A stretch of DNA of 64,000 nucleotides. Source: Candidatus Omnitrophota bacterium. Lineage in GTDB: Bacteria; Omnitrophota; Omnitrophia; Omnitrophales; Aquincolibacteriaceae. The stretch lies in NCBI GenBank assembly GCA_043732705.1, contig JAYTHE010000006.1, forward strand, positions 12,284-76,283. Reading direction: 5' to 3'. The translations under genes were made by a program, and so were the position numbers. The number at the start of each line of letters is the position of its first letter. Positions within the stretch are counted from its first letter, which is position 1. The notes below the pieces were generated by a model. It was not told the DNA's origin, made no database searches, and worked only from the letters and a program-made list of their open reading frames with translations. Shown one piece after another: positions 3,236 through 59,913 of this stretch.

Positions 3236-5455
3236 ATGAGCAAAAAGAAAGCTTCTAAATTTTTAATCCCGCTTGTTTTGCTGGGCGCGGTGGTTGGTCT
3301 GCGGATTCTTTTTTCTGAAAAAGCAGATGATTTTTCCATGCGGGTTTTTGATCAATATCAAAAAATAAGGCCGCGCATTTATAAAGATACCCCCGTGCGT
3401 TTTATTGACATTGACGATGAGAGCCTTGCCAAGATAGGTCAATGGCCGTGGCCGCGTACGGTGTTGGCACAACTTATCTCCCATTTATCTGAAAAAGGCG
3501 CCTCTGTTATCGTGATGGATATTCTTTTTTCAGAAGCGGACCGTACTTCGCCTGCCCGGGCGCTTCCGTTATGGAACTCCGATTTACCGGAACTTCAAAC
3601 TTTAAAAACCAAAGTAAATTTGTTGCCAGATCATGATCAGGTTTTTGCCAAGGCTATTTCTGAAGCGCGTGTTGTTACGGGCTTTAATTTGACGACTGAT
3701 AAAACCGTGGGCTCTCCGTTGGTTAAAGCCGGTTTTGCGCATAGCGGTGAAGATCCGCTTGGATATTTACCCGCTTTTCATGGTGCTATTTCGAATCTTT
3801 CGATTTTTGAAAAAGAAGCGTTGGGTAATGGGAGCTTCAATTTTATCGCGGATTCCGATGCCGTTTTAAGGCGAGTGCCGCTTGTTTTCCGGTATGAGAA
3901 TCAGCTTGTGCCGTCGCTTGTGGCGGAAGCTGTGCGCGTGGCTCAGGGCGCTTCAAGTTTCGTGATTAAGTCTTCAACGGGCAGCGGTAAAACAAGTTTT
4001 GGAGAAAATACGGGGATAACTAATTTTAAAATTGGACAATTTGTTATCCCAACGGATGGTGAGGGCCGAATCTGGCTTTACGATACCGGAAGAATAAAAA
4101 AACGTTATCTCTCCGCCTCCAAGGTTCTCAGCAGCGATTTTGATCCCAAGCTCGTGGAAGGAAATGTTATTTTTGTAGGATCGAGCGCCGCGGGGCTTAA
4201 AGATTTGCGCGCCACGCCGCTGAGCTCGGTGTCGGCCGGGACGGAAGTTCACGCGCAACTGGTAGAGCAAATTTTAAATCAGGAGTTTTTAAGCCGTCCT
4301 GATTGGGCGCCGGGCGCCGAAATCTGTTTCGTGCTTGTGTTGGGTATCCTCCTGGTTTTTTTGTTGCCATGGCTGGGGGTTGTGGCGTCCGCGGTTTTTA
4401 GCGTGCTTTTGACTATGTTTGCCTTTGGATTTTCATGGTATGAATTCAGCACAAAGCATCAGCTTTTTGATCCGGTGACGCCATCACTCGTGGTGTTGAT
4501 TCTTTACTTGGCGATATCGTTGATGCATTACCTTCGGACGGAAGCCGAAAAAAATCAAATTCGCGGGGCTTTCGGGCAATATGTTTCACCCGCGCTTTTA
4601 GAGAAAATATCAAAAAATCCCGAGCAGTTGAAGTTGGGCGGGGAAACGCGCACGATGACTATTTTATTTTCCGATATCCGCAATTTTACAGCACTTTCCG
4701 AAAAATTGAGCGCTGAGGATTTAACGCTATTCATGAATCGCTATTTGACCCCCATGACAAATATTATTCTTAAAACGAATGGGACCATTGATAAATATAT
4801 CGGCGATTGCATTATGGCTTTTTGGAATGCGCCGGTATCGGATGCTGAGCATGTGCGGCATGCTTGCCAAGCTGCGCTTGAAATGCAAAGCCATCTCAAA
4901 GATTGGAATGTGTCGATGCGGGAAGAATTTAAAAAGAATGGAAAATTTTTTGAGCCCATCAAGGTTGGAATTGGTTTAAACACGGGGGAGTGTTGCGTGG
5001 GAAATGTGGGGTCGGAGCAACGCTTTGATTATTCTGTGTTGGGCGATGATGTGAATCTTGCTTCGCGCTTAGAGAGCCAATCTAAATTTTATGGAGTGGA
5101 TATTATCTTAGGCCCGTCAATGCAAACGCAAGCTCAAGACTATGCAATGCTTGAAATGGACTTAATTCGTGTTAAAGGCAAAACAAAGCCCGTTCAGATT
5201 TATGCTTTGCTGGGTAACGAAAGTGTAAAAAAAAGCAGTGTCTTTCAAGGTTTGGAAGCATTGCATCAAAAAATGATTTCATCGTATCGAACCCAACAGT
5301 GGGGGGAAGCCGAGAAAATAATGGATAGTCTTCTTGAGCAAAAAGGGTTTTTGCAGCTAGAAGATTTGTATAGGCTATATCAAAAAAGCATTCAAATCTA
5401 CAAACTTCGTCCTTTTGACCCCAACTGGGATGGTGTGAATAGTCTGAATCACTAG
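3236..5455 (+). CDS. CHASE2 sensor domain-containing class III adenylate/guanylate cyclase
   Basis: N-terminal TM, CHASE2-like extracytoplasmic region, TM block, then cyclase homology domain (ILFSDIRNFTALSE, GDCIMAFWNAP, GLNTGECCVGNVGS); RBS AAAGGAAA upstream. Confidence 0.85.
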   Translation: MSKKKASKFLIPLVLLGAVVGLRILFSEKADDFSMRVFDQYQKIRPRIYKDTPVRFIDIDDESLAKIGQWPWPRTVLAQLISHLSEKGASVIVMDILFSEADRTSPARALPLWNSDLPELQTLKTKVNLLPDHDQVFAKAISEARVVTGFNLTTDKTVGSPLVKAGFAHSGEDPLGYLPAFHGAISNLSIFEKEALGNGSFNFIADSDAVLRRVPLVFRYENQLVPSLVAEAVRVAQGASSFVIKSSTGSGKTSFGENTGITNFKIGQFVIPTDGEGRIWLYDTGRIKKRYLSASKVLSSDFDPKLVEGNVIFVGSSAAGLKDLRATPLSSVSAGTEVHAQLVEQILNQEFLSRPDWAPGAEICFVLVLGILLVFLLPWLGVVASAVFSVLLTMFAFGFSWYEFSTKHQLFDPVTPSLVVLILYLAISLMHYLRTEAEKNQIRGAFGQYVSPALLEKISKNPEQLKLGGETRTMTILFSDIRNFTALSEKLSAEDLTLFMNRYLTPMTNIILKTNGTIDKYIGDCIMAFWNAPVSDAEHVRHACQAALEMQSHLKDWNVSMREEFKKNGKFFEPIKVGIGLNTGECCVGNVGSEQRFDYSVLGDDVNLASRLESQSKFYGVDIILGPSMQTQAQDYAMLEMDLIRVKGKTKPVQIYALLGNESVKKSSVFQGLEALHQKMISSYRTQQWGEAEKIMDSLLEQKGFLQLEDLYRLYQKSIQIYKLRPFDPNWDGVNSLNH

Positions 5456-5645
5456 TCAATACCTCTTCAAAGTCTTTCGAGACCAGCTTGATGAAATCAG
5501 ATATAATCCCGCTTCCGAGGACGGAAAAGTTAAAACTTAAAGTTTAAAGCTAAAAACCATAACTCAAAGCCCCTAAGCTGCCTGAAGAGTTTTGAGTTAT
5601 CAGTTATAGTTTTGATTTTTTAGTTATAAGTTTTGAGTTTTCTTG

Positions 5646-5718
5646 TGCCCGTAGCTCAACTGGATAGAGTACTGCCCTCCGAAGGCAGGGGTTGGTGGTT
5701 CAAATCCACCCGGGCACA
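5646..5718 (+). tRNA. tRNA-Arg (anticodon CCG)
   Basis: Hand-folded cloverleaf: acceptor GTGCCCG/CGGGCAC, D-arm GCTC..GAGT, anticodon stem CTGCC/GGCAG with loop CUCCGAA, T-arm GGTGG-TTCAAAT-CCACC, discriminator A; no encoded CCA. Confidence 0.85.
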
Positions 5719-5753
5719 TGCATCGCGAAGCGATGGCGTTTTGAATTATGATT

Positions 5754-5850
5754 CAAAACGAGCTCAACTATTCCGCCTTAGGCGGATAAATATTACGGGA
5801 GCGCTGCCCTCCGAAGGCAGAGGTTGCGCGTTCAATTCGCGCCGGGCACA
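5754..5850 (+). pseudogene. degenerate tRNA-Arg(CCG)-like copy: intact anticodon arm, T-arm and 3' acceptor strand, but no complementary 5' acceptor strand and a ~28-nt hairpin insertion (CCGCCTTAGGCGG) in the D-loop
   Basis: Aligned by eye against the upstream tRNA-Arg; shares CTGCCCTCCGAAGGCAG and CGGGCACA; T-arm differs (GCGCG-TTCAATT-CGCGC). Confidence 0.45.
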
Positions 5851-9113: not shown

Positions 9114-9422
9114 ATGTTGAGTTCAATTTTTGTGCCGATGCAGGCGACGACCCAGGCGAACCCTTTGGTTCAACTTGCACCGATGGTTTTGATTTTCGGA
9201 ATTTTTTATTTTCTAATTCTCCGTCCGCAGCAAAAACGCCAGAAGGACCTTGCCAAGTTGGTTGAAGGCGTGAAAAAAGGCGATAAGGTTGTGACAGCCG
9301 GCGGAATCTTAGGCATCGTGACAAGTATTCAGCAGGATTATGTTGTCATTAAAACCGGAGATTCCGATACGACTAAAATGGAAGTTTTAAAAAGCGCGAT
9401 TACCGGCATTCGAAATGAATAA
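9114..9422 (+). CDS. yajC: preprotein translocase subunit YajC
   Basis: ~100 aa with single TM and a YajC-like core (RPQQKRQKDLAKLVEGVKKGDKVVTAGGILG); RBS AAGGAG. Confidence 0.85.
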   Translation: MLSSIFVPMQATTQANPLVQLAPMVLIFGIFYFLILRPQQKRQKDLAKLVEGVKKGDKVVTAGGILGIVTSIQQDYVVIKTGDSDTTKMEVLKSAITGIRNE

Positions 9423-9432
9423 TTAAGGAACT

Positions 9433-9527
9433 CGCCCCGTTAGAGTTTTAACTAACTCAGCAGAGCAGTTTATTAATAGAAATTGGTTTTCTCAAGATGG
9501 TTTGATTTGTTCGAAACTCTAACGGGG
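9433..9527 (+). repeat. family-A palindromic element, divergent copy (TIR CCCGTTAGAGTTT / AAACTCTAACGGG), 5' of secDF
   Basis: Terminal inverted repeats read from sequence; related to copies at 14521 and 21761. Confidence 0.5.
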
Positions 9528-13505: not shown

Positions 13506-13604
13506 TATTTTTCTCTGCGCCAGCGGCATCAATTTTTTTCTGGGCTTTGCCCAACCCCATCCGCGATTGAGCAAGCTCAGAGCTAATATAAAACTGTAAA
13601 AAGA

Positions 13605-14520: not shown

Positions 14521-14631
14521 ATGAATGCCGTTAGACTCTTAACCTACACTGTTATGAATATATATAAACTAAAGCTTGAAAAATTGCGCAACTATGCTTG
14601 TTGCTATTTGAAGAGAGTCTAACAGGATGAA
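14521..14631 (+). repeat. family-A ~110-nt MITE-like element flush with the glgA start codon (ATGAAT...CCGTTAGACTCTTAAC...GAAGAGAGTCTAACAGG ATGAA)
   Basis: High similarity to 21761..21871 over the whole length; TIRs; flanking ATGAA(T/A) on both sides. Confidence 0.6.
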
Positions 14632-16093
14632 AATTGTTCATGTCGCTTCCGAATTCGGGAAATTTGCGAAAACAGGCGGTTTGGCCGATGTTACTTCCTC
14701 TTTAACGGATGCCTTGGCCGGGCTGGGGCATGAGGTTTCTGTTTTTTTGCCGCGTTATCGTTTTTCCGATAAAGTGACAACGGGTTTTAAGAAAGTCATT
14801 GATGCGCTCGATGTCACCATCGGCCATCAAAAAGAAAAGGGCGCGGTTTATTCCGGCAAGCTTGAATCGGGAGTCACCGTTTACCTGATTGACCACCCCG
14901 AGTTTTTTACCCGCGAATTTATCTACGGAACCTACACCGGCGATTATGCCGACAATGACCGCCGCTTTACTTTTTTTCAGCGCGCAGTTTTGACAGCGAT
15001 TGATAAACTCGCACTGGATCCCGAGATTATTCATTGCCACGATTGGCAAACAGGCTTGATTCCGGTTTATTTGAAGAACCGTGATTTTCGCGGCGGGCGA
15101 TTTAAAAAAATCAGAACTGTTTTCACGGTGCATAACCTTGCCTATCAAGGTAATTTTCCGCCTGATTCGTTGCCCGTAACGGGGCTGGGTTGGGAGCATT
15201 TCCGGTTTGATTTATTGGAATTTTACGGCAAGGTCAGTTTTATTAAAGGCGGACTTGTTTTTGCCGATGCGGTGACAACTGTGAGTGAACGCTACGCGCG
15301 CGAAATTCAAACCAAAGAATTTGGCTGCGGGCTGGATGCTGTTTTACGCGAGCGCGCGCTTGATTTGCATGGCATTGTAAACGGTATTAATCCGGAAGAG
15401 TGGAATCCGGCGGGCGAAACCGGCTTAGCGGCCAATTTTTCAGCCTCAAGCCTTGCGGGTAAGGCCACATGCAAGCAAGCGCTTCAGCGCGACAATGAAT
15501 TTGTGCCAGATGAAAAAATTCCGGTGTTTGCTTTTGTGTCCCGTTTGGTTTCGCAAAAGGGCCTAGATATTTTGATTCCGGCTTTTGAAGCGCTCGCGGG
15601 GATGGAAATTCAGCTTTTGGTTTTAGGAACAGGTGAAGAGCGTTATCACCAGGCTTTGCGCGACCTTGCGAAAAAGAACCGCGAATGGCTCAAAGTACAT
15701 ATTGTTTTTGATCCCGCGACGGCAAAGCAAATGTATTCCGGTAGTGATTTCTTTTTGCTGCCCTCGCTGTATGAACCTTGCGGCTTAGGGCAAATGATCG
15801 CTTTGCGATACGGAACCATTCCCGTGGTGCGCGAAATCGGCGGCCTGGCGGATACGGTGACCGAATTTAACCCTGTTTCATGCACCGGGAACGGCTTTGT
15901 TTTTCAGGAATATAAGGCCGAGGCGCTGATTGACGCCGTGCGCCGTGCGGTTAAAGTTTTTAAAAAGAAAAAAGAGTGGCAGCAGCTGCAGCAAAACGCT
16001 TTTGCCTGTGATTTTTCGTGGGAAGCTTCCGCCAAAAAGTACGTTGAGCTTTATAAAAACGTTAAGCCGATCAAGGTAAAACTTGAGAAGTAA
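14627..16093 (+). CDS. glgA: glycogen synthase (ADP-glucose type, GT5)
   Basis: MKIVHVASEFGKFAKTGGLADV N-terminal signature; full length ~488 aa. Confidence 0.9.
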   Translation: MKIVHVASEFGKFAKTGGLADVTSSLTDALAGLGHEVSVFLPRYRFSDKVTTGFKKVIDALDVTIGHQKEKGAVYSGKLESGVTVYLIDHPEFFTREFIYGTYTGDYADNDRRFTFFQRAVLTAIDKLALDPEIIHCHDWQTGLIPVYLKNRDFRGGRFKKIRTVFTVHNLAYQGNFPPDSLPVTGLGWEHFRFDLLEFYGKVSFIKGGLVFADAVTTVSERYAREIQTKEFGCGLDAVLRERALDLHGIVNGINPEEWNPAGETGLAANFSASSLAGKATCKQALQRDNEFVPDEKIPVFAFVSRLVSQKGLDILIPAFEALAGMEIQLLVLGTGEERYHQALRDLAKKNREWLKVHIVFDPATAKQMYSGSDFFLLPSLYEPCGLGQMIALRYGTIPVVREIGGLADTVTEFNPVSCTGNGFVFQEYKAEALIDAVRRAVKVFKKKKEWQQLQQNAFACDFSWEASAKKYVELYKNVKPIKVKLEK

Positions 16094-16245
16094 GCTCTAA
16101 GCACGAAACCCTAAATCATAAATAAATTCCAATGATTGAAATCCAAAAGCGTGTCTTTGAGTCATTGAAATTTGTTGCTTTGTGTTTATTTAGAATTTAG
16201 ATATTAGGATTTGGGATTTAAATATGTCTAACGATATTTTAAAAA
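16094..16245. repeat. family-D ~130-150-nt palindromic AT-rich element (ends CTCTAAGCAC…CTAAATCATAAATAAA / TTTATTTAGAATTTAGA)
   Basis: Reverse complement of 33644..33768 aligns with it (CTCTAAGCAC, CTAAATC(A/C)TAAATAAAT, CCAA...). Confidence 0.45.
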
Positions 16246-16311
16246 TCGGCTGGTTATATTTGCGCCTCTCGACAAGGCTCGAGGCGCGGCTGCAATTATT
16301 TGAGAGCAAGC

Positions 16312-17085
16312 ATGAGTGATATGCTAAAAATCGGAAAATTTGAGATTCGTTCCCGGCTTTTGATCGGTACGGGGAAGTATCCGTCTTTCGAAGTGATGCG
16401 CGAAGCGCATATCGCCGCCGGCGTGGATATGGTGACGCTTGCGACCGCACGTTTTGATTTATCAAACAGGAAAGAAAAAAACATTCTTGATTTTATTGAT
16501 CAAAAGAAAATTAAAATTCTTCCGAATACAGCCGGCGCTTATACCGTAAAAGACGCGGTGCGCATTGCCTGCCTGGCGCGTGAAGCTGGAATGGGCGAGT
16601 TGGTAAAACTCGAAGTGATCGGCGATCCAAAAACTTTGATGCCGGATGTTGTCGGCTTGATTGAAGCAACCCGTGAATTGGTGAAAGACGGTTTCACGGT
16701 CATGCCTTATACAAGTGATGATTTGGTCGTGGCAAAAAAACTAGTCGATGCGGGCGCGGCCTGCGTCATGCCGCTTGCGGCGCCGATTGGCTCGGGGCGC
16801 GGCATTCAAAATAAATTAGCCTTAAAACTTTTAATCGAGGCGGTGGATTGCCCCGTGATTATTGACGCAGGCGTCGGTACGGCATCCGATGCGGCGATTG
16901 CCATGGAGCTCGGCGCCGATGGCGTTCTTCTCAATACGGCGATTGCCGAAGCAAAAGATCCGGTTTTAATGGCGCAAGCGATGAAGGAAGCGGTGAGCGC
17001 CGGCCGTAAAGCATTTCAAGCGGGACGAATGGCTATTAGGGATTACGCTTCAGCTTCATCACCCCAACAAGGCTTAAAAGTCTGA
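16312..17085 (+). CDS. thiG: thiazole synthase
   Basis: MSDMLKIGKFEIRSRLLIGTGKY...; ThiG-like length; first in-frame ATG at 16312 (the track uses TTG at 16300). Confidence 0.85.
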   Translation: MSDMLKIGKFEIRSRLLIGTGKYPSFEVMREAHIAAGVDMVTLATARFDLSNRKEKNILDFIDQKKIKILPNTAGAYTVKDAVRIACLAREAGMGELVKLEVIGDPKTLMPDVVGLIEATRELVKDGFTVMPYTSDDLVVAKKLVDAGAACVMPLAAPIGSGRGIQNKLALKLLIEAVDCPVIIDAGVGTASDAAIAMELGADGVLLNTAIAEAKDPVLMAQAMKEAVSAGRKAFQAGRMAIRDYASASSPQQGLKV

Positions 17086-17212
17086 TGAAAAATTCCATCT
17101 ACTGCGTTACAAGCTTCACAGCGGTTCGCTTGCGAATCGCCAAACGATTCATAGGCTTGTGCGGCGTATTTCTGCATACGCCTCCGCGGGCACTCGCTTG
17201 CGCCTTGTATTT
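17086..17212 (+). repeat. family-B ~100-127-nt repeat immediately after the thiG stop (…TCCATCT(A/G)CTGCGTT…TGTGCGGCGTATTTCTGCATACGCCTCCGCGG…CTTGCGCCTTG…)
   Basis: Three near-identical copies (17086, 27694, 59718), all + orientation, all starting at a TGA/TAA-AAAA stop context. Confidence 0.6.
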
Positions 17213-17243
17213 GATCAAACTATAAGAAACAGGAAGGTTTGTT

Positions 17244-18317
17244 GTGTATAAAATCGCATTATTGCCGGGCGACGGCATTGGTCTCGAAGTTACGGAACAA
17301 GTTGTAAAAATTTTAAAAAAACTGCAATCCGAATTTCATATTGTTTTTGAAACCGAAAAATATTTGATTGGCGGGTGCTCGATTGATGCGCATGGCGAAC
17401 CTTTGACGGATGAAACGCTCGCTAAAATTAAAAAAGCGGATGCAGTTTTTCTTGGCGCGGTCGGCGGACCCAAATGGGATAATCTTGAATCGGCGAAACG
17501 CCCGGAAAAAGGATTGTTGAAGCTGCGCAAAGGTTTGAATGCTTACGCCAACGTTCGTCCGGTCAAAATGTTTGACGCGCTGGTTCAACGATCTTCCTTA
17601 AAACCTGAAATTGTGAAGGGGCTCGACTTCGTCATTTTACGCGAATTGGTGAGCGGAATTTATTTCGGCGAACCGCGCGGGTTCAAAAAAAACGCAGCGG
17701 GTGAAGAACAGGGTTTCAATACCATGATTTACTCCGAATCCGAAGTCGAACGCATTGCGAAAAAAGCATTTGAAATCGCGCGTAAGCGAAAAAAAATCGT
17801 CACTTCGGTAGATAAAGCAAATGTGCTCGAAGTTTCCCAGCTTTGGCGCAAAGTTGTTGAGCGTGTTCACAAACAATATCCGGACGTTCAGTTGAATCAC
17901 CGTTATGTGGATGATTGCGCGATGCAGTTTATCCGCGATCCAAAGCAATTTGACGTTGTTGTTACCGGAAATTTATTCGGAGATATTTTAAGTGATGAAG
18001 CTGCGATGCTCACGGGTTCGATTGGCATGCTGCCGTCAGCTTCGCTTGGCGACACGATCGGCCTTTATGAGCCGGTGCATGGTTCCGCACCTGATATCGC
18101 GGGCCAGGACAAAGCTAATCCCTTGGCATCGATTTTGACTCTGGCCATGATGCTGGAGTCGAGCTTTAATTTGTTTGATTTATCGGATAAATTAGTTAAA
18201 GCCGTTGAGTCTGTTTTGACCGAAGGCTACCGTACCGGTGATATTTTTACTGAAGGTTCGAAACTTGTCAGCTGTTCCAAAATGGGCGATTTGATCGCGG
18301 AACGGATTAAAAAATGA
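17244..18317 (+). CDS. leuB: 3-isopropylmalate dehydrogenase (isocitrate/isopropylmalate DH family)
   Basis: NLFGDILSDEAAMLTGSIGMLPSASLG signature; 357 aa. Confidence 0.7.
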   Translation: MYKIALLPGDGIGLEVTEQVVKILKKLQSEFHIVFETEKYLIGGCSIDAHGEPLTDETLAKIKKADAVFLGAVGGPKWDNLESAKRPEKGLLKLRKGLNAYANVRPVKMFDALVQRSSLKPEIVKGLDFVILRELVSGIYFGEPRGFKKNAAGEEQGFNTMIYSESEVERIAKKAFEIARKRKKIVTSVDKANVLEVSQLWRKVVERVHKQYPDVQLNHRYVDDCAMQFIRDPKQFDVVVTGNLFGDILSDEAAMLTGSIGMLPSASLGDTIGLYEPVHGSAPDIAGQDKANPLASILTLAMMLESSFNLFDLSDKLVKAVESVLTEGYRTGDIFTEGSKLVSCSKMGDLIAERIKK

Positions 18318-18414
18318 CATGCAAAGCATGTCATCCCGTAAAACGAACGAAGTGAGTTTATACGGGATCTAGATTCCCATTTTCGCGGGATTTTTTTGAT
18401 TTTAAAAGGATTTT

Positions 18415-19506
18415 ATGAAGAAGAAAGACAAATATAATATTGCGGTCGTGGGCGCAAAGGGCGCCGTCGGCTATGAAATGATCAAGCTGCTTGCTGATTC
18501 TAAAATCGCAGTTGGGGAATTCAAGCCTTTCGGATCGGCGCGCACAAAAGGCGCCGAGATTTTATTTCGCGGCAAGACTTACAAAAATAACGAACTCAAA
18601 TCGACACGTGAAGAGTTCAAAGGTATCGACATTGTTTTGTCGAGTCCGGGCGCTTCGGTCAGCAAGCAATTTGCGCCAGCTGCAATTGCTGAAGGGGCGA
18701 TTATTATCGATAACACCAGCGCATTTCGCATGGATCCAAAGGTCCCGCTTGTGATTCCTGAAATTAACGCGAGTGATATTAAAGAAGACAGCAAAATCAT
18801 CGCCAATCCGAATTGTTCGGCGATTATGATGTTGATGGCTGTTGCGCCTTTACATAAGGTTAATCGAATCCGCCGCATTCATTGCGCCACCTATCAGGCT
18901 GTCAGCGGTGCCGGTGCGACGGCCATGGTCGAACTTTATTCCCAGGCCAAAGAATTTGTTGAGCGTGTTGAGAAGAACCCAAAGAGTAAAAGCGATTTGC
19001 TGGCTGCGGTCCAGGATGAAACCGACCGTTTAAGTAAATCTCCGCTTGCTAAGAGCGTTTTTCCGCATCAAATTGCATTCAATTTGTTTTCGCATAACGC
19101 TGCGATTGAAGATAAAGGTTATAACGGTGAAGAGTTAAAAATGATCCAGGAATCGAAAAAGATTCTGCATGATAACTCGATTCAAATCGCGACCACCTGT
19201 ATCCGCGTGCCGGTATTACGTGCGCACACCGAAGTGCTCTACATAGAGTTTGAGAAGAAAATGACACCGGATGAAGCTCTTGGAATTTTGATCAAGTCTC
19301 CGGGTATCGAAATCCAAAACAATCCGAAAGATAATCATTTTCCGATGCCGATCGAGGCTACCGGTAAAAAGAAAGTGCTCGTGGGCCGTATCCGCGAAGA
19401 TTTGTCCTGCGAAAACGGGTTAGCTCTCATGGTTTCCGGCGATCAATTGTGGAAAGGTGCAGCCCTCAATGCCGTTCAAATCGCCGAGTATCTTGTCAGC
19501 CATTGA
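18415..19506 (+). CDS. asd: aspartate-semialdehyde dehydrogenase
   Basis: NIAVVGAKGAVG Rossmann N-terminus and active-site NCSAI motif. Confidence 0.85.
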   Translation: MKKKDKYNIAVVGAKGAVGYEMIKLLADSKIAVGEFKPFGSARTKGAEILFRGKTYKNNELKSTREEFKGIDIVLSSPGASVSKQFAPAAIAEGAIIIDNTSAFRMDPKVPLVIPEINASDIKEDSKIIANPNCSAIMMLMAVAPLHKVNRIRRIHCATYQAVSGAGATAMVELYSQAKEFVERVEKNPKSKSDLLAAVQDETDRLSKSPLAKSVFPHQIAFNLFSHNAAIEDKGYNGEELKMIQESKKILHDNSIQIATTCIRVPVLRAHTEVLYIEFEKKMTPDEALGILIKSPGIEIQNNPKDNHFPMPIEATGKKKVLVGRIREDLSCENGLALMVSGDQLWKGAALNAVQIAEYLVSH

Positions 19507-19636
19507 AAGTGGCTCGTCTGCGGCGTTACAAATTCGCAATTTTCAGTCAACGTGCGTTTTCAGCGCGCCTTCTTCGATTGCTCATTTGTGCCTTGCATCC
19601 TAACCATTTTGAATGGCTTCTCTTTCGTCAACTTTT

Positions 19637-20455
19637 ATGAAGAGCGCAAAACTGCGAAACATTAAACCGACGCTTGGCAGTATTCGACACATCAAGCTCA
19701 CACTTGAGTATGACGGCACCGATTTTTTCGGATTTCAGCGCCAGCCTAATCAACCGACAGTCCAGCAAGCAATCGAAGAAGCGCTCGAAAAATTACTCCA
19801 GCAAAAAACACGGCTGATTTCAGCCAGCAGCCGCACGGACGCGGGTGTGCATGCCGAAGAACAAATTATTCATTTCAAAACAGAAAGTATTTTGGCGCTG
19901 CACCGGATTGAACGCGGACTGAATCATTTTTTGCCGAAATCTATTGCGGTTACAAAAGCAGAAGAAGTTTCCGCGGACTTTCACGCGCGCTTTCAGCCTG
20001 TTGCTAAAATTTACGAATATCGCATTTGGAATCATTTTTCGCATCCTGCGATTTGGCGCAACCGAGCCTGCCACATCGTTGGTGAATTAGATTTGACGGC
20101 AATCAAACATGCCGCCAAATTTTTAACGGGTAAGCATGACTTTCGCGCTTTCACTTCGGTTGAAGTGATTGTCAAAAGTCGGACTATTGCCCGCAAAAAA
20201 ATTTCTTTTGTCCGTACTATTAAGAAATTAAATATTAAAAAACAGGGCAAAATGTTGATTTTTACCGTGGTGGCCGATGGTTTTCTTTATCATATGGTGC
20301 GTAATCTCGTCGGTACTTTGACGGCGGTTGGGAAGGGGAAAATGAAGGCCGGAGATATGCCCGCAATCTTAAAATCCCATGACCGTAAGCGTTCGGGACC
20401 TACTTTGCCTGCTTGCGGGCTAACGCTAAAACGGGTGATTTACCCGTCAGCCTAA
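19637..20455 (+). CDS. truA: tRNA pseudouridine(38-40) synthase
   Basis: LEYDGTDFFGFQRQ...RTDAGVHA motifs; start placed at MKSAKL ATG. Confidence 0.85.
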   Translation: MKSAKLRNIKPTLGSIRHIKLTLEYDGTDFFGFQRQPNQPTVQQAIEEALEKLLQQKTRLISASSRTDAGVHAEEQIIHFKTESILALHRIERGLNHFLPKSIAVTKAEEVSADFHARFQPVAKIYEYRIWNHFSHPAIWRNRACHIVGELDLTAIKHAAKFLTGKHDFRAFTSVEVIVKSRTIARKKISFVRTIKKLNIKKQGKMLIFTVVADGFLYHMVRNLVGTLTAVGKGKMKAGDMPAILKSHDRKRSGPTLPACGLTLKRVIYPSA

Positions 20456-20529
20456 AAGGCTAAAAAGCCGCGCTCTATTCGAGGGTAAGCCTAGGGGAAA
20501 ATACCTTAGTAGAGCGTAAGAAAATAATT

Positions 20530-20558
20530 TTGACACCCCCCAAGTCCTTTGCTATACT
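20530..20558 (+). promoter_or_regulatory. strong sigma70 promoter TTGACA-N17-TGCTATACT (extended -10) for rplM-rpsI
   Basis: Consensus -35, 17-nt spacer, TGn-extended -10, read from sequence. Confidence 0.55.
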
Positions 20559-20590
20559 CCGCTCTCTTTTGCCGCCCTGTTTTGTATTCG

Positions 20591-20658
20591 CCTCTGTGCG
20601 CTAAGGCGCACAACCGAGCGGTAATAATTGTTTGGCTCTGCGCTTCGCGCAACCGCAA
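20591..20658 (+). repeat. two tandem family-C REP-like hairpins in the rplM leader
   Basis: CTCTGTGCGC-TAAG-GCGCACAACCG then GCTCTGCGC-TTC-GCGCAACCGCAA. Confidence 0.5.
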
Positions 20659-20688
20659 AGCGGTTTACAGCATGAAATTAAGGGAACT

Positions 20689-21117
20689 ATGAAGACATTT
20701 CGTATTGCAGATAAAGATATCGAGCACAAAGTATGGCTCGTCAACGCCGACGGAAAAACGTTGGGACGTCTTGCTACTAAAGTAGCGCAGCTTTTAATCG
20801 GTAAGGGTAAGCCTTATTTCGCTAAAGACCAAGTTGTGGGCGATTATGTTGTTGTGATTAATGCCGCTAAAATTAAAGTTACCGGCCGTAAGCATGAACA
20901 AAAAACCTATACACGCTATTCCGGCTATCCAGGTGGGTTGAAGTCAGTCGTTTATGAGGACTTTCAAGCTAAGAAGCCCACGGAAATTATTACACGTGCC
21001 GTTTCACGCATGCTTCCTAAAAATAATATCGGCGAAGAAATGCGCCGCCGCATCCGCGTTTTTGAAGGCGCGGAGCATAATCAACAGGCGCAAAAGCCCG
21101 TTGCAATTGAGGTATAA
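20689..21117 (+). CDS. rplM: 50S ribosomal protein L13
   Basis: MKTFRIADKDIEHKVWLVNADGKTLGRLAT... matches L13; RBS AAGGGA. Confidence 0.9.
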   Translation: MKTFRIADKDIEHKVWLVNADGKTLGRLATKVAQLLIGKGKPYFAKDQVVGDYVVVINAAKIKVTGRKHEQKTYTRYSGYPGGLKSVVYEDFQAKKPTEIITRAVSRMLPKNNIGEEMRRRIRVFEGAEHNQQAQKPVAIEV

Positions 21118-21122
21118 ATAAA

Positions 21123-21512
21123 ATGGCAGAAGTTATTTACGCAACCGGACGCCGCAAATCAGCTATCGCGCGCGTTTGGATTTTTCCCGGTCAAAAAGGT
21201 TTTACGATCAATGGTAAAGATTCCGCTAAATATTTAAAGCGCGCGAATTTGCAGATGGTTGTGGATCAGCCGATTCAAGCCGTTAGCCCTAAAGAAGTCG
21301 TTCGTATCCGCGCCCGCGTTATCGGCGGCGGCATTGCCGGTCAAGCCGGAGCGGTTCGCCTCGGAATTTCCCGTGCGCTTGTGAAACTTAATGAAAAATT
21401 TCAGCCTGCTTTGCGTAAGGGCGGCTTTTTAACGCGTGATCCGCGTCAGAAAGAAAGAAAGAAATACGGTAAAAAAGGCGCACGCCGCGGTTTTCAGTTT
21501 ACAAAACGCTGA
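21123..21512 (+). CDS. rpsI: 30S ribosomal protein S9
   Basis: C-terminal ...KKYGKKGARRGFQFTKR typical of S9. Confidence 0.9.
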   Translation: MAEVIYATGRRKSAIARVWIFPGQKGFTINGKDSAKYLKRANLQMVVDQPIQAVSPKEVVRIRARVIGGGIAGQAGAVRLGISRALVKLNEKFQPALRKGGFLTRDPRQKERKKYGKKGARRGFQFTKR

Positions 21513-21514
21513 TT

Positions 21515-21706
21515 ATGTTTTTGCCTCTGCGGCCAGCTTTTTTAGCTCTGTCGCGTTGGCACAACTGCAGCAACCGGCGGCTCAAATCAGCAGTGGTTGT
21601 TTTTATTTTGTTGCTGGCATTCGGAGTTCTCTCCGGATGCCAGTCTTTTTTTGAGGATTACCAGTACGCGCCGGTAGCATCGTCGTCGTCCGGTTCTTCT
21701 TACTAA
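21515..21706 (+). CDS. candidate small lipoprotein (63 aa; signal peptide with lipobox LSGC, Ser-rich tail)
   Basis: RRLKSAVVVFILLLAFGVLSGCQ is a textbook lipoprotein signal; no obvious RBS, start uncertain. Confidence 0.3.
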   Translation: MFLPLRPAFLALSRWHNCSNRRLKSAVVVFILLLAFGVLSGCQSFFEDYQYAPVASSSSGSSY

Positions 21707-21760
21707 TTTTGGCGCGATCGGATCAGACCCGATCGTAATTGGCTGTGATATACTGACCCC

Positions 21761-21871
21761 ATGAATCCCGTTAGACTCTTAACCAACGTTGTTATAAATA
21801 ATTATAAATTTATGTGTAGGAAAATTTTGCATTCATACAGATTTTATTTGAAGAGAGTCTAACGGGATGAA
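21761..21871 (+). repeat. family-A ~110-nt MITE-like element flush with the AsmA-like gene start codon
   Basis: See 14521..14631. Confidence 0.6.
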
Positions 21872-24317
21872 TTTCAAGAAATATTTTTTTACCGTCGTTT
21901 CCATTCTCATCTTCTTTCTGGTTGTTTTTTTATCCGCGGTTTTTTTACGCTATCATTCTTGGAGCACCGATCCTCGCCCCGCGGAAAAGCTGGCGGCTTA
22001 TTTTTCGCGCATTACGAAGAGTGATTTTCAATATAAGTCTTTGGAATGGCGGCTTTTGCCTTTTCCTGCGGCTCGTTTTTCTGAGCCCGTTTTTAAATTT
22101 AAAAGTGATTTGCATCATGAGCTCAAAGCGCGTTCATTAGTTTTAAATCTTGATCTAGTGAAGCTCCTCTTTGGAGATTTTGGGTTTTCTGAGCTTCATC
22201 TCAGCGAGGGAGAGTGGCATGGCCAGATTGACGCGCCTAAGGGGGTGCATAATTTTGTGGTCGAGCATATTGACCTGAAAACTTCTGCGCTTTTGTCGGA
22301 TCGGCCCGTAAAAATTTATATGAGCGGAGATACCGGCGGCCGGAGGAAAGCGGTTGTCATTCACGGCGATTTAAAATTACCGCCGCTTGAAGAGCCGCGT
22401 CTAGATAGTTTGGGTTTCGAAGTTCAGGTTTTAACGCGTAATTTTAAGTTTGAAGACAGTCCGGAATGGGAATTTTTAGGCTGGATTCCAAGCTCGGGGC
22501 TTTCTGACTTTTTAATTGAATTAAAACATGAGCCCATGAGTGATCGTGTTGATTTTTCGGGTGATGCGGGACTGCATGAACTTTCTTTCCGCTCCGCAGA
22601 TCAGGCCAAAGCAGTGCCGTATAAAGTCGGAAATTTGCAGGTTAAATTTGCGGGGTATTTCAGTCCGAAGACGGATGAATTAAAATTTACGCATTGTTCC
22701 GCCGCGTTGCCTTTCTCACAATTTAATCTTCAAGGCGCTTATCTCCCGCATCGCCGTGAATTCCGTTCGATGACGTTTAGTTTTTCAAATGTCAAATTGG
22801 ATGACTTGCCGTCTTATTTCCCGGATATGAAAAACCGAATTCCTTACTTTATCGGATTTTCAGGACAAACGGACTTGAGTTTTTCACTTAATGGATTTCC
22901 GAATCATTTAAAAATTTACGGTGATTTCGATTTGACGCATACCTTGTTTACTTACGGGCGCTTCTTTCAAAAAGCCAAGGAAAAACCATTTCGCATCAAG
23001 ACCGACTTTGATTGGGCGGCGCAGCTGTTGTCCGGAGAGTTTTCGGGCAGTCTTGATAACCTGACATTTAAAGGCAATCTTCCGGAGTGGCGGCCATCGG
23101 GGGCCATGAAAATTAATTTTATTACGAATGCTTTTGCCGCCGATCAACTGCCCGGGTTTGTGCCCTTTTTGTCGAGTTATGAGTTAGGCGGAACCATGAA
23201 ACTTTTTGCGAACTTTGACGGTAATTTACAAAGCACCGCTCCTTTTCAAAAAATGTTTCATTTAAATATGCAAGAGGGCCGTATTTTAAGAAAAGGCACT
23301 GGTTCGGGCTTTAAAGATTTGGACTTGGATTTGGACTTTGGCCCGTTATTGATGGAAGTCAAGGCGCCGCGGTTTTCGGTGGGGGGATCATTTTTTGAAG
23401 GTGCGCTGAAAGGAATTCATCCTGAAAAGGATCCGAAGTGGGAAGGGCATTTGACCTCCCAAAAATTGATTGCCGCTAGTGTTTGGAAGGAATGGAAAGA
23501 ATTTTGGGGCGGTGAAAATGCGGCCTGGCTTGAGCGCCTGCATCCGTGGCTTCAAAAAATGATTTTGAGCGAGGATCCTTATGAGTCAGTAAAAGCAGAT
23601 TTTTCATCGGAAAATAATGCTTCTCAGATTCATTCGCTTGAGGCCAAGGCTTTTGACGGGCAGTTGTCCGGATCCGTCTCTGTTCAGACGGTCGATCAAG
23701 GCCAAAAAACTGAACTAAAAATGAATGGCGCGGGGATGGATGCGGCCCGCTTGTTTAAGCTTTTGGGCGCTACGCAGCCCGCCTTAGAAGGCCGGGTGGA
23801 TTGGAAGGCTGAATTGGAAGGCTCGCCGGCTTCAGGTCATACGGATTGGTCGGGGCCGATTTCGCTTTCGATAAAAAATGGTTTCTTAAATCACTTTGGT
23901 TATGTTCAGGCTTTTGAACAGATGGAAACTTTAAAGAAGGCGTCTTCAGAAGGCAGCGACCGGTTGGCTTTTAAATTTTTGAACGTCGAGGGTCATGTTG
24001 AAAATGAACGATTTAAAGCCAGTCAGGTTAATTTTGAAAATGAACAAATTCAAGTTGAGGGTGAAGGCGAGGTAACCGGCGACGGCATCTTGAATTTCCG
24101 GTTAAAAACTCATCTTGAGGCGGGATACTTCCGGCAGCTTTTTCCAAAACGCGCGGATGATTTTATTTCCGGGCAGGATAAATTTTTTGGCCCTATCACT
24201 TTGCTTGCGTCCGGTCCGTTGGATGGTTTGAATGTTAAGCCGGATCCGCAGTCGGTTGCCGAATTAGCAAGCTGGTATGCGCATAAAAAGACCGAGTCCC
24301 TCTCGAAGTATCTGTAA
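21867..24317 (+). CDS. AsmA/TamB-like membrane-anchored envelope protein (N-terminal TM, large periplasmic region)
   Basis: 816 aa with N-terminal TM helix and beta-rich remainder; family call from architecture only, no strong motif. Confidence 0.4.
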   Translation: MNFKKYFFTVVSILIFFLVVFLSAVFLRYHSWSTDPRPAEKLAAYFSRITKSDFQYKSLEWRLLPFPAARFSEPVFKFKSDLHHELKARSLVLNLDLVKLLFGDFGFSELHLSEGEWHGQIDAPKGVHNFVVEHIDLKTSALLSDRPVKIYMSGDTGGRRKAVVIHGDLKLPPLEEPRLDSLGFEVQVLTRNFKFEDSPEWEFLGWIPSSGLSDFLIELKHEPMSDRVDFSGDAGLHELSFRSADQAKAVPYKVGNLQVKFAGYFSPKTDELKFTHCSAALPFSQFNLQGAYLPHRREFRSMTFSFSNVKLDDLPSYFPDMKNRIPYFIGFSGQTDLSFSLNGFPNHLKIYGDFDLTHTLFTYGRFFQKAKEKPFRIKTDFDWAAQLLSGEFSGSLDNLTFKGNLPEWRPSGAMKINFITNAFAADQLPGFVPFLSSYELGGTMKLFANFDGNLQSTAPFQKMFHLNMQEGRILRKGTGSGFKDLDLDLDFGPLLMEVKAPRFSVGGSFFEGALKGIHPEKDPKWEGHLTSQKLIAASVWKEWKEFWGGENAAWLERLHPWLQKMILSEDPYESVKADFSSENNASQIHSLEAKAFDGQLSGSVSVQTVDQGQKTELKMNGAGMDAARLFKLLGATQPALEGRVDWKAELEGSPASGHTDWSGPISLSIKNGFLNHFGYVQAFEQMETLKKASSEGSDRLAFKFLNVEGHVENERFKASQVNFENEQIQVEGEGEVTGDGILNFRLKTHLEAGYFRQLFPKRADDFISGQDKFFGPITLLASGPLDGLNVKPDPQSVAELASWYAHKKTESLSKYL

Positions 24318-24508
24318 CATTTAGGTTCTGGGCGGAACGCCCAACCACCGGTCCTCAACTCTAATATTTAATCAAGCTTCCCTGATAGAGCCATTTGCTG
24401 CTTTGCGTTTGAGCGAAGCTCAGAGCAAAAATTATAGCCGGAATTTTTTCCGCAGTTTGATGACGAGATTCCTAGCAGCTTTTAAATGAAGCCGCAAGTT
24501 AAGGAGTA

Positions 24509-24589: not shown

Positions 24590-25300
24590 TTATAATTTGA
24601 ATCGCTTTCTCAATTTAAGTACTAGCATTCTCGCTGCTTTTTCTTCCGCTTCTTTTCTGGATCTTGCCACTGCTTTGGCGCGTTTCTGTCCATCGATCCA
24701 GGCGACAACCTGAATTCCCTTGGCGACCTGTGAGCTGTCATATTGAGGCAGTTTTTTCCAGTGTTTCTGGCTGATTTCTTGAAGCGTGCTTTTTGGATTG
24801 GGATCAAGCCGGAAAAGTTTTTTAATGTCAAAGTATTCGTCAAAGTGCGTGAGAATAAAATTTTCCGCGGCTTTTTTTCCGCGGTCAAAATAAATGGCGG
24901 CGATTAAAGATTCAAAAACATCCGCCAGCACCTTTGCTTTCAGAAAAGACGGGGAGGACTTTTTAAATCCGCGCCCAAGCCGCATAAATTTATTCAGTTT
25001 CAGGTCTCGCGCGATTTTAATTAGGATTCTGCGTGAAACGAGCGTGGACCGGAGACGGCTCAAAAGTCCTTCGTCGGCATCCTTAAATGTTTGATAAATT
25101 TTTCTGCAAACCACTTCGTTGAGAATGGCATCACCGAGAAACTCCATGCGGTCAAAATGATCCAATCCCGGAATCGGGTTTTCATAACGAAATGACGGGT
25201 GAGTTAAAGCGGACTCGTAACCGTACGGTTTTTTAATTTTGAGCCCCAAGGTTTTTTCAAGCGCCTTGAAATCAATGGGGCGAATCGTGCGTGTTGCCAT
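24590..25300 (-). CDS. rnc: ribonuclease III
   Basis: RNase III signature HPSF...ERMEFLGDAILN and C-terminal dsRBD. Confidence 0.9.
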   Translation of the reverse strand: MATRTIRPIDFKALEKTLGLKIKKPYGYESALTHPSFRYENPIPGLDHFDRMEFLGDAILNEVVCRKIYQTFKDADEGLLSRLRSTLVSRRILIKIARDLKLNKFMRLGRGFKKSSPSFLKAKVLADVFESLIAAIYFDRGKKAAENFILTHFDEYFDIKKLFRLDPNPKSTLQEISQKHWKKLPQYDSSQVAKGIQVVAWIDGQKRAKAVARSRKEAEEKAARMLVLKLRKRFKL

Positions 25301-27693: not shown

Positions 27694-27793
27694 ATGAAAA
27701 AGTCCATCTGCTGCGTTGCGTCCCTCGCTTCCTTGTGCGGCGTATTAGCTTATACGCCTCCGCGGTCGCTCGAACGCGCCTTGCATCTGAATC
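27694..27793 (+). repeat. family-B repeat copy after the argJ stop
   Basis: Aligned by eye with 17086 and 59718 copies. Confidence 0.6.
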
Positions 27794-27849
27794 TTTTTGA
27801 CCGGTTTTAATTTTAGTTATTTTAAGTATTGAGGATATAGATAAAGTTT

Positions 27850-58406: not shown

Positions 58407-58699
58407 ATTCTGCGTTGCAATTTTTAGAATGATGTTGCGGTTGAGCGAAGCTCAGAGCAAAAAAATATCTCAGAGAAATCACAGAAAAATTTTGACTGTG
58501 TGCCCGCACGGTGTTAAAGTAGCCGCGCTTCGAAAGACCTTGTCCCACGGGCTTTTCCGCGGGATACTATTTATTCTGCTCCGAGCTTTGCTTAACCGCA
58601 AAGTAATGGCTTAGCATGGACGAAGCGAATTGAAATTCAAAAGCGGGACGATGTTTGTTGCGCTCTGAGCCGCGGCTCAATCGCAAAACAAAAGGAAAG

Positions 58700-59717: not shown

Positions 59718-59814
59718 TGAAAAACTCTCATCTGCTGCGTTGCAAGCAGCGCTTCTTTGTGCGGCGTATTTCCGTATACGCCTCCGCAGTCGCTCGCTTG
59801 CGCCTTGCATCTAA
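59718..59814 (+). repeat. family-B repeat copy after the gpsA stop
   Basis: Aligned by eye with 17086 and 27694 copies. Confidence 0.6.
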
Positions 59815-59913
59815 GAATTTTTGAGTGACCATTTAAAAGATTTTTTCGAACAACAACAAAGTCAGACGATGTTAATAAATAGCTTCGTTTGGTTTTTATA
59901 ACAGGAGCATCAA

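Follow-up and report, generated by a model that had tools for sequence, protein, structure and literature searches.

A small inverted-repeat element with a 4-bp target duplication in the start codons of Candidatus Omnitrophota genes

Three short, similar sequences lie at or near the starts of glgA (glycogen synthase), of a gene for a large AsmA/YhdP-like membrane protein, and of secDF in a 64-kb stretch of Candidatus Omnitrophota DNA (contig JAYTHE010000006.1), which we analyzed as a whole and refer to as the window. With boundaries taken from the wider family to which they belong, these three copies of one element span positions 9435-9527, 14526-14627 and 21766-21867, where an initial annotation of the window had located them. 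As that annotation had also noted, the glgA and AsmA-like copies align over their full length (75% identity), and the secDF copy is more diverged (61% identity to each), with the same termini. The motif of the conserved left end (left arm) recurs three times in the 64 kb versus 0.09 occurrences expected, a count reached in no shuffle, and in all three copies each 13-nt arm is matched by an inverted partner. The copies and the features around them are as follows.

9435-9527, + strand: secDF copy of the element, 93 nt with C..G termini, between yajC and secDF and 10 nt 5' of the secDF ATG at 9538
14521-14622, + strand: 33-codon open reading frame (ORF) at glgA, running from the orphaned ATG across the element (MNAVRLLT...YLKRV*) to a TAA in the right arm that ends 4 nt 5' of the glgA ATG
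14522-14525, + strand: left copy of the target-site duplication at glgA, TGAA, which together with the A at 14521 makes the orphaned original start ATGAA
14526-14627, + strand: glgA copy of the element, 102 nt, with left arm TGCCGTTAGACTCTTAAC and right arm GAAGAGAGTCTAACAGGA; the element ends with the A at 14627, which doubles as the first base of the glgA ATG
14627-16093, + strand: glgA, glycogen synthase, 488 aa (Pfam Glyco_transf_5 in orthologs), whose start codon straddles the element edge
14628-14631, + strand: right copy of the duplication at glgA, TGAA, equal to bases 2-5 of the glgA coding sequence
21746-21754, + strand: extended -10-like box TGaTATACT, 6 nt 5' of the orphaned ATG at the AsmA-like gene
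21761-21862, + strand: 33-codon ORF at the AsmA-like gene, crossing the element (MNPVRLLT...YLKRV*), with a TAA that ends 4 nt 5' of the ATG
21762-21765, + strand: left copy of the duplication at the AsmA-like gene, TGAA, which with the A at 21761 gives the orphaned start codon
21766-21867, + strand: AsmA/YhdP-like copy of the element, 102 nt, with arms TCCCGTTAGACTCTTAAC and GAAGAGAGTCTAACGGGA; its last base is the A of the ATG
21867-24317, + strand: AsmA-like gene for an 816-aa membrane protein with a weak YhdP/AsmA-like match, whose start codon straddles the element edge
21868-21871, + strand: right copy of the duplication at the AsmA-like gene, TGAA

The pentamer ATGAA stands at 14521-14525 and again at 14627-14631, bracketing the glgA copy, and at 21761-21765 and again at 21867-21871, bracketing the AsmA-like copy. 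Because the glgA product begins MKIVHVASEFGKFAKTGGLADV and the AsmA-like product has a hydrophobic N-terminus, both ATGs at the element edges are credible starts. The sole basis for the label 'AsmA-like' is a sub-threshold match to Pfam YhdP (E = 3e-6; 25.8 bits versus a cut-off of 46). Folding of a 146-nt RNA around the AsmA-like copy gave -31.9 kcal/mol (z = -3.4) and placed the A and U of the AUG within a 16-bp terminal stem, in agreement with the earlier proposal that the start codon sits at the base of the stem.

Target-site duplications and empty sites

The family was sampled as 120 unique copies drawn from a scan of species-representative genomes (both arms), a metagenome scan, and the window; the first yielded 12 loci and the second at least 120, for more than 130 loci in all. 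The consensus of the 120 copies is N-CCCGTTAGA-nnn-TTAAC…TCTAACGGG-N', with (T/C)…(A/G) as terminal bases. Its terminal inverted repeats are approximately 14 bp long, (T/C)CCCGTTAGAnnn … nnnTCTAACGGG(A/G), and are near-perfectly complementary over 13-14 bp. Arm positions that were free of the search pattern (1, 2 and 11-13) are Watson-Crick paired in 101-112 of the 120 copies though their bases vary, i.e., they co-vary, and pairing decays past position 14. Elements are ~80-110 bp long (mode 99-101 nt when measured from the outer edge of one core motif to that of the other), and their interiors are AT-rich, unrelated among copies and freely evolving, with a non-conserved frame of 30-40 codons as the sole ORF.

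Five of the 12 genome-scan loci, in four genomes, are named Candidatus Omnitrophota or Omnitrophica, and two are labeled Saccharibacteria. Copies L005 and L012 lie on contigs labeled 'uncultured Candidatus Saccharibacteria' (third-party annotation, TPA, bins), the latter with a perfect TTTA duplication; either the family reaches beyond Omnitrophota or these bins are mislabeled. The window GlgA itself has relatives on contigs at 80-91% identity and named relatives at ~58%, the latter all Candidatus Omnitrophota. A lookup by exact protein sequence returned no record for it.

A perfect 4-bp direct repeat stands just outside N-CCCG…CGGG-N' in 62 of the 120 copies, compared with 0.5 expected. Other symmetric registers gave almost no 4-bp matches, and matches in the remaining registers merely extend or shift the repeat. 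The initial annotation had proposed to examine the flanks of further copies for a duplication or a preference for start codons; both emerged from this tabulation, the latter in 47 copies (see below). The duplicated tetramers were TGAA (22 copies), TTCA (15), TGGA (5), TCCA, TTTA, TAAA and TCAA (3 each) and others such as CTCA. The dominance of TGAA and TTCA indicates a preferred double-stranded site, TGAA/TTCA, that is hit in either orientation. Among copies of the T..A type, an A precedes the TGAA duplication in 19 of 20 and a T follows the TTCA duplication in 8 of 9, so the original site was ATGAA. The target put forward in the initial annotation is therefore upheld, whereas the 5-bp duplication that it described is not: the duplication is TGAA, 4 bp, because what looked like a fifth repeated base is, on the left, the A of the former start codon and, on the right, the element's own terminal A.

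Some copies form tandem arrays of two to four, separated only by shared duplicated bases (CGTAA or TGAA; L006 5528-5745, L028 ~5380-5715, L096, and L123 ~9270-9500), as expected if each insertion makes a new target on both sides. A 29-nt hairpin consisting of the arms only, CCCCGTTAGAAATAAAATTTCTAACGGGG, with TTCA on both sides, occurs at L021 2222-2246, L091 5526-5550 and L114 1344-1368, and may be either an internal-deletion derivative or a minimal mobile unit.

Four contigs syntenic with the window were retrieved through GlgA homologs (L133, L134, L135 and L136, with GlgA identities of 80%, 83%, 91% and 89%, respectively). In L134, L135 and L136 the glgA site is empty: the CBM48 gene is followed by ~30 nt and then by …/ATGAAAAT, where the window reads …tatatgaA[TGAA]-element-[TGAA]AATTG. 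The AsmA-like site is empty in L133 and L134, reading …gaTATACTgccct/ATGAATTT (…TATACTgccct/ATGAATTT), where the window has …gaTATACTgacccc-A[TGAA]-element-[TGAA]TTTC. The empty sites at both genes match the expected pre-insertion sequence exactly. The yajC-secDF junction is likewise empty, and 3-5 nt long, in L134 and L136. Relatives with empty sites, which the initial annotation had proposed to seek, were thus found at all three places (three relatives at glgA, two at the AsmA-like gene and two at yajC-secDF), and presence/absence differences were also seen among related contigs at the start codons of rplX, rpmC and rpsH. Empty sites in syntenic relatives establish insertion and rule out a conserved leader; with 62 perfect repeats in one register, they bear out the earlier view of a small non-autonomous element that leaves a target-site duplication.

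L133 carries a different repeat (tagtgct…aaaatcatgag…cagcactg) ~130 nt 5' of both glgA (3517) and the AsmA-like gene (13366). At glgA this repeat adjoins a right-arm-like …AAGGAGTTTCTAACGGA/ATG, for which the left arm is not clear. Several small elements thus seem to be drawn to these two gene starts.

The alternative that these empty sites contradict is an ordinary cis-regulatory leader or structured RNA, vertically inherited, with a stem bound by a protein or cut by RNase III. It would account for termini that are conserved across genomes with only 62% SecDF identity, for the co-variation of the stem, and for the fact that secDF is preceded by a copy both in the window and in contig L007 (62% SecDF identity to the window); rnc, which encodes RNase III, is also present in the window. 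A leader shared by orthologs, which the initial annotation had named as the observation that would speak against mobility, thus seemed to be at hand in L007. Because much closer relatives have an empty yajC-secDF junction, the secDF copies of the window and L007 are instead independent insertions with no shared leader, and we rejected the reading of these two copies as an ancient conserved leader. Moreover, no copy stands at glgA in the relatives whose GlgA is 83-91% identical, and the AsmA-like and secDF sites are empty in subsets of these and in the relative with 80%. The duplications in 62 of 120 copies, the occurrence of both orientations relative to the gene (30 versus 17), the copies between convergent genes and the tandem arrays all count against a leader as well. 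Rfam, at gathering and relaxed thresholds, passed only tRNAs, the best match to the element being a plant miRNA model at 28.9 bits (gathering threshold 139.7). We give this alternative a very slight probability.

The rnc gene lies at 24590-25300 on the minus strand, just downstream of the AsmA-like gene. In Neisseria the long stems of co-transcribed miniature inverted-repeat transposable elements, or MITEs, serve as RNase III substrates; the 14-17-bp stems of the present element are short for this enzyme. Separately, a gene in L009 considered as an ortholog of the window AsmA-like gene proved not to be orthologous.

Start codons and the reading frame across the element

In 47 of the 120 copies, the downstream ORF starts at the terminal base of the element (A or G) followed by the TG of the duplication, at the right end in 30 copies and at the left end, on the other strand, in 17. 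ORFs were counted from a length of 70 aa upward, or from 40 aa upward if they ran off the contig end. Copies with C..G termini give GTG starts. Genes that carry a copy in the start codon include glgA, ribosomal protein genes and hemL, and copies also occur between convergent genes. When copies with a perfect duplication at an ATGnn site were considered, 32 of 40 stood at a gene start, and several of the others lay in tandem arrays. A census of ATGAA in the window (16 at called starts versus 17 intergenic) sets the expectation at ~50%, from which 32 of 40 departs with a binomial p of 9e-5.

Consecutive ribosomal-protein gene starts are occupied in S10/spc operons (rplD, rplW, rplX, rpmC, rpsH; L016 296-1159, and L034, L035, L045 and L061), where translational coupling is already the rule. 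In L003 (~1627-1729) and L055 (~4449-4550), the host ORF seems to begin at an ATG within the element and to read out through the arm (…MVKTLTGW…), so that N-terminal residues appear to come from the element and not from a coupled upstream ORF.

The frame set by the orphaned ATG, ATG-AAT-CCC-GTT-AGA…, avoids the TAG and TAA that the arms present in their other two frames. Since the arms themselves close those frames, only the orphan-ATG frame is a fair control. It is open across the whole element in 26 of the 47 start-codon copies, and in 24 of the 35 in which the orphan is still ATG, GTG or TTG. By comparison, the same frame is open in 7 of the 47 copies when they are read the other way round, and in 31 of 146 readings taken from copies that have no gene at the junction (38 of 193 pooled; Fisher p = 4e-6 for all start-codon copies and 2e-8 for the 24 of 35). 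Open frames occur in 25 of 41 unrelated interior clusters and in both element orientations, and were therefore not inherited from one master copy. They stop either at -7 relative to the ATG, i.e., ending 4 nt before it (12 cases), or at +1 as an overlapping ATGA (13 cases). Elements of a length that would join the ORF and the gene into a single frame are underrepresented (10 of 47 versus 34 of 73; p = 0.006), and none of these copies is open. Together, the copies display insertion with a 4-bp duplication at start codons, a regenerated start codon, and a frame without stops that leads from the original start codon to a stop codon at the rebuilt one.

The explanation that we favor, and consider likely, is that the copies represent a non-autonomous DNA transposon, or MITE, which occurs mainly in Candidatus Omnitrophota, sits in start codons and carries an ORF coupled to the gene. 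The element inserts preferentially at the TGAA of ATGAA or the TGGA of ATGGA, where a start codon is followed by the opening two bases of a second codon for Lys, Asn, Glu or Asp. Because it ends in A or G, an ATG or GTG that is in frame with the gene forms again at the right junction, and the original ATG, with the gene's own upstream signals, is left ~105 nt upstream. Ribosomes may then initiate at the orphaned ATG using these original signals, translate the 33-38-codon ORF through the element, and in doing so melt the terminal stem that would otherwise pair with the real start codon. They would terminate at the right-arm TAA 4 nt before the ATG, or at the overlapping TGA (ATGA), and re-initiate on the gene. 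The ORF that crosses the element fits such translational coupling, which would render an insertion nearly neutral for the host. At the AsmA-like gene, the -10-like box (21746-21754) is also present ahead of the ATG in L133 and L134, where the site is empty, and its conservation so near the ATG suggests that the AsmA-like mRNA is probably leaderless; a terminator-like hairpin at 21613-21644 follows the upstream operon (rpsI).

Some right arms carry a Shine-Dalgarno-like GAGGAG or AAGGA 9-11 nt 5' of the ATG (L008, L009, L060, L022 and L133), which raises the alternative of a mobile cassette that delivers a promoter and a ribosome-binding site, like Correia elements or Neisseria REP2, the open frame being incidental. 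Consistent with such a cassette, 21 of the 47 start-codon copies are closed yet precede apparently intact genes, and the AT-rich interiors hold many -10-like hexamers by eye. However, a consensus scan detected no sigma-70-like promoter in either of the window's start-codon copies, and most right arms have no Shine-Dalgarno motif (TTTAATTTTCTAACGGG). A cassette would also leave unexplained both the lack of stops, which is specific to frame and orientation, and the depletion of in-frame lengths. We therefore regard it as unlikely, though the most serious of the alternatives.

The identical ATGAA sequences that bracket a stable hairpin bring to mind removal or skipping of the element at the RNA level, by splicing-like excision or by ribosomes that bypass from one ATGAA copy to the other; identical take-off and landing sites flank a stable hairpin in T4 gene 60 and in the yeast mitochondrial byp elements. 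Neither variant needs an open frame, yet the frame is kept open. Bypassing, in addition, requires a nascent-peptide signal, which is impossible at codon 2, and no ribozyme or intron family in Rfam matched. We assign scarcely any probability to either variant.

Returning to a transposon with a coupled ORF, the enzyme that moves it would presumably be a DDE transposase supplied in trans, an assumption based on the inverted termini and the fixed length of the duplication. A different kind of mobility, in which a REPIN/PATE-type element is moved as single-stranded DNA by an HUH (Y1) transposase of the RAYT or IS200/IS605 kind, would be in keeping with two inverted conserved sequences of ~17 nt that lie ~70 nt apart and form a hairpin, with arms that are each partly palindromic (GTTA…TAAC), and with a long-lived element that is widely spread in its lineage. 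HUH elements insert beside their target without duplicating it, whereas the present copies are flanked by varied 4-bp duplications (TGAA, TGGA, TTTA, TCAA, CTCA and others). A GTAG or CGTC tag is missing from the arms, which begin CCCGTTAG, and no Y1 transposase domain was detected in the window ORFs scanned. Movement by an HUH enzyme is thus highly improbable.

Several observations weigh against the transposon with a coupled ORF, or narrow the ground on which it stands. The orphan-start frame is closed in 21 of the 47 start-codon copies. Shine-Dalgarno-like content does not separate open from closed copies, and the motif is weak or absent 5' of the orphaned ATG in many of them, including both start-codon copies of the window. 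The secDF copy has CTCG on its left and TAAA on its right, with no recognizable duplication and no ORF across it, and it does not lie in a start codon. Of 51 ORFs called in the window, the 46 scanned with Pfam contain no transposase domain, as the initial annotation had stated for the window; four of the other five are housekeeping genes by synteny with L133/L134. Neither in the window nor in ~0.9 Mb of related loci was a full-length parent element found: where two arms lie 0.3-4 kb apart and share a duplication, they enclose no transposase-like ORF. The solo arms and distant pairs of arms that we considered as a parent were chance pairs or separate neighbors (the rplD and rplW starts in L016; the interior of a large gene in L084). 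Because neither a transposase nor a parent was found, the chemistry of transposition is assumed. Gene starts were called by ORF length alone, and the search pattern, which fixed 13 left-arm bases and 7.5 right-arm bases, under-sampled diverged copies and other length classes. Finally, the excess at gene starts could reflect either targeting or selection and survival after insertion.

A further step, which we offer tentatively and with slightly less than even confidence, is that the family has evolved to use start codons as a safe landing site. The transposase would recognize ATG(A/G)A, the terminal A or G would have been selected because it rebuilds an initiation codon, and the arms would keep one frame open while the other two stop at the gene start. 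In that case each insertion would automatically yield a coupled upstream ORF, a form of neutral insertion encoded by the transposon itself in the densest part of a compact genome, and the family would be a ready-made source of translational regulation by hairpins and upstream ORFs across the phylum.

Relation to known elements and other features of the window

Structurally the element is a bacterial MITE, with every defining feature apart from a parent IS: it is small and has no capacity to encode a transposase, with inverted termini, a fixed duplication, and dispersed copies that are polymorphic for presence. Correia, ERIC and RUP elements duplicate TA, and Correia/NEMIS, from Neisseria, has 26-bp inverted termini and an integration host factor (IHF) site. 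The Omnitrophota element differs from Correia/NEMIS in its 14-bp termini of unrelated sequence and its 4-bp duplication of the TNNA type. More broadly, Correia/NEMIS, ERIC, RUP, Nezha and Chunjie are small, non-coding, multi-copy elements with terminal inverted repeats, a duplication, presence/absence polymorphism and hairpins when co-transcribed (PMC10969869, PMC3184786). The Omnitrophota element shares their small size, inverted repeats, duplication and polymorphism, and differs from them in its targets and duplications; Chunjie, for example, duplicates 9 bp (PMC3184786). In a 2024 review of prokaryotic MITEs, the phrase 'start codon' is absent, and start-codon insertion with a coupled ORF is not among the functions listed (PMC10969869). 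Our own literature searches returned only unrelated primers for the arm sequences and nothing relevant on MITEs at start codons or MITEs in Omnitrophota.

The closest functional precedent, and the only published parallel that we found, is the mycobacterial interspersed repetitive unit (MIRU). MIRUs are direct-repeat units of 40-100 bp in Mycobacterium, often in tandem as variable-number tandem repeats (VNTRs). To our knowledge they lack terminal inverted repeats and a defined target-site duplication, and no mechanism has been established by which they insert. Compared by description, the Omnitrophota element is set apart by its co-varying 14-bp inverted termini, its 4-bp duplication, a start codon rebuilt by its own terminal base, its occurrence in both orientations and its presence in another phylum. 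The likeness lies in start-codon insertion and an internal coupled ORF: a 2025 review in J Bacteriol describes MIRUs as short, apparently mobile repeats that reportedly insert at start codons, such that the ORF inside them is joined to the gene by a -4 (ATGA) overlap, and this coupling is thought to minimize effects on host gene expression (PMC12548453, citing Supply et al. 1997). Thirteen of our copies have the exact ATGA overlap.

Other elements share single features with this family. Neisseria REP2 and the Borrelia IR repeats are dispersed, lie immediately upstream of genes and contribute the ATG of the downstream ORF; they come with a promoter and a ribosome-binding site of their own, they lack terminal inverted repeats, and a duplication has not been documented for them (PMC3184786). 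Here, in contrast, the orphaned ATG keeps the upstream signals, which lie outside the element. Rickettsia palindromic elements are mobile palindromic repeats that genes tolerate through an open frame and that are translated within the host protein (PMC10969869). The Omnitrophota element also keeps a frame open, but the in-frame phase is avoided and the ORF ends just before or on the real start. REPIN/RAYT doublets combine the absence of a target duplication with a GTAG/CGTC tag and a single-copy RAYT gene, whereas the Omnitrophota element has duplications and no tag.

Integrons offer a different comparison. The short ORF-11 of attI1 runs across the recombination site, brings ribosomes to a downstream gene without an initiation region of its own, and enhances cassette translation; this system consists of site-specific tyrosine-recombinase cassettes, unlike the Omnitrophota element. 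In attC sites, core sites 5'-RYYYAAC … GTTRRRY-3' stand in that order, in cassette arrays beside intI. The GTTAGA and TCTAAC of our arms resemble these cores but in the opposite order (GTTAGA … TCTAAC on either strand), and the copies are dispersed at gene starts with variable 4-bp duplications. The MIRU, Correia, REPIN and attC families each have one or more defining features that the element lacks, and it is therefore a member of none of them. Readings of the copies as attC-like sites, an invertible promoter, an operator pair, RNase III sites or sites of ribosome bypassing were all rejected, none of them fitting the duplications, the empty sites or the open frame.

What is new here is a MITE with inverted termini and a target duplication that occupies start codons, documented in sequence detail in a poorly studied phylum. 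Transposons are normally expected to lie outside genes or to be destructive; this element, with clear ends, a duplication and empty sites, sits in the start codons of housekeeping genes in an uncultivated phylum, in an arrangement that suggests a simple mechanism for keeping those genes working. The family could make mobility that targets start codons and is nevertheless harmless open to experiment. In practical terms, gene-calling programs will set starts wrongly where copies have inserted, or will report spurious 33-codon ORFs. Expression of many genes may be modulated by the hairpin and short ORF, and the design resembles the bicistronic expression cassettes of biotechnology.

The window also contains repeats of other kinds. 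A second, GC-rich intergenic family, unrelated to the element, has copies of up to 96 nt with 80-89% identity and a GGCGTAT…ATACGCC hairpin at 17157-17210, 27705-27800 and 59729-59824, after thiG, argJ and gpsA. A near-identical 29-nt terminator-like hairpin, TTGCGnTTGAGCGAAGCTCAGAGCAAAAA, occurs at 24403-24431 and 58435-58463, 3' of different genes, with a related sequence at 13573-13595. Lastly, tRNA-Arg(CCG) at 5644-5719 is followed 80 nt on by a 52-nt copy of its 3' half (5799-5850; 81% identity), which neither ARAGORN nor Rfam called as a tRNA and which could be an integration scar or a decayed duplicate.

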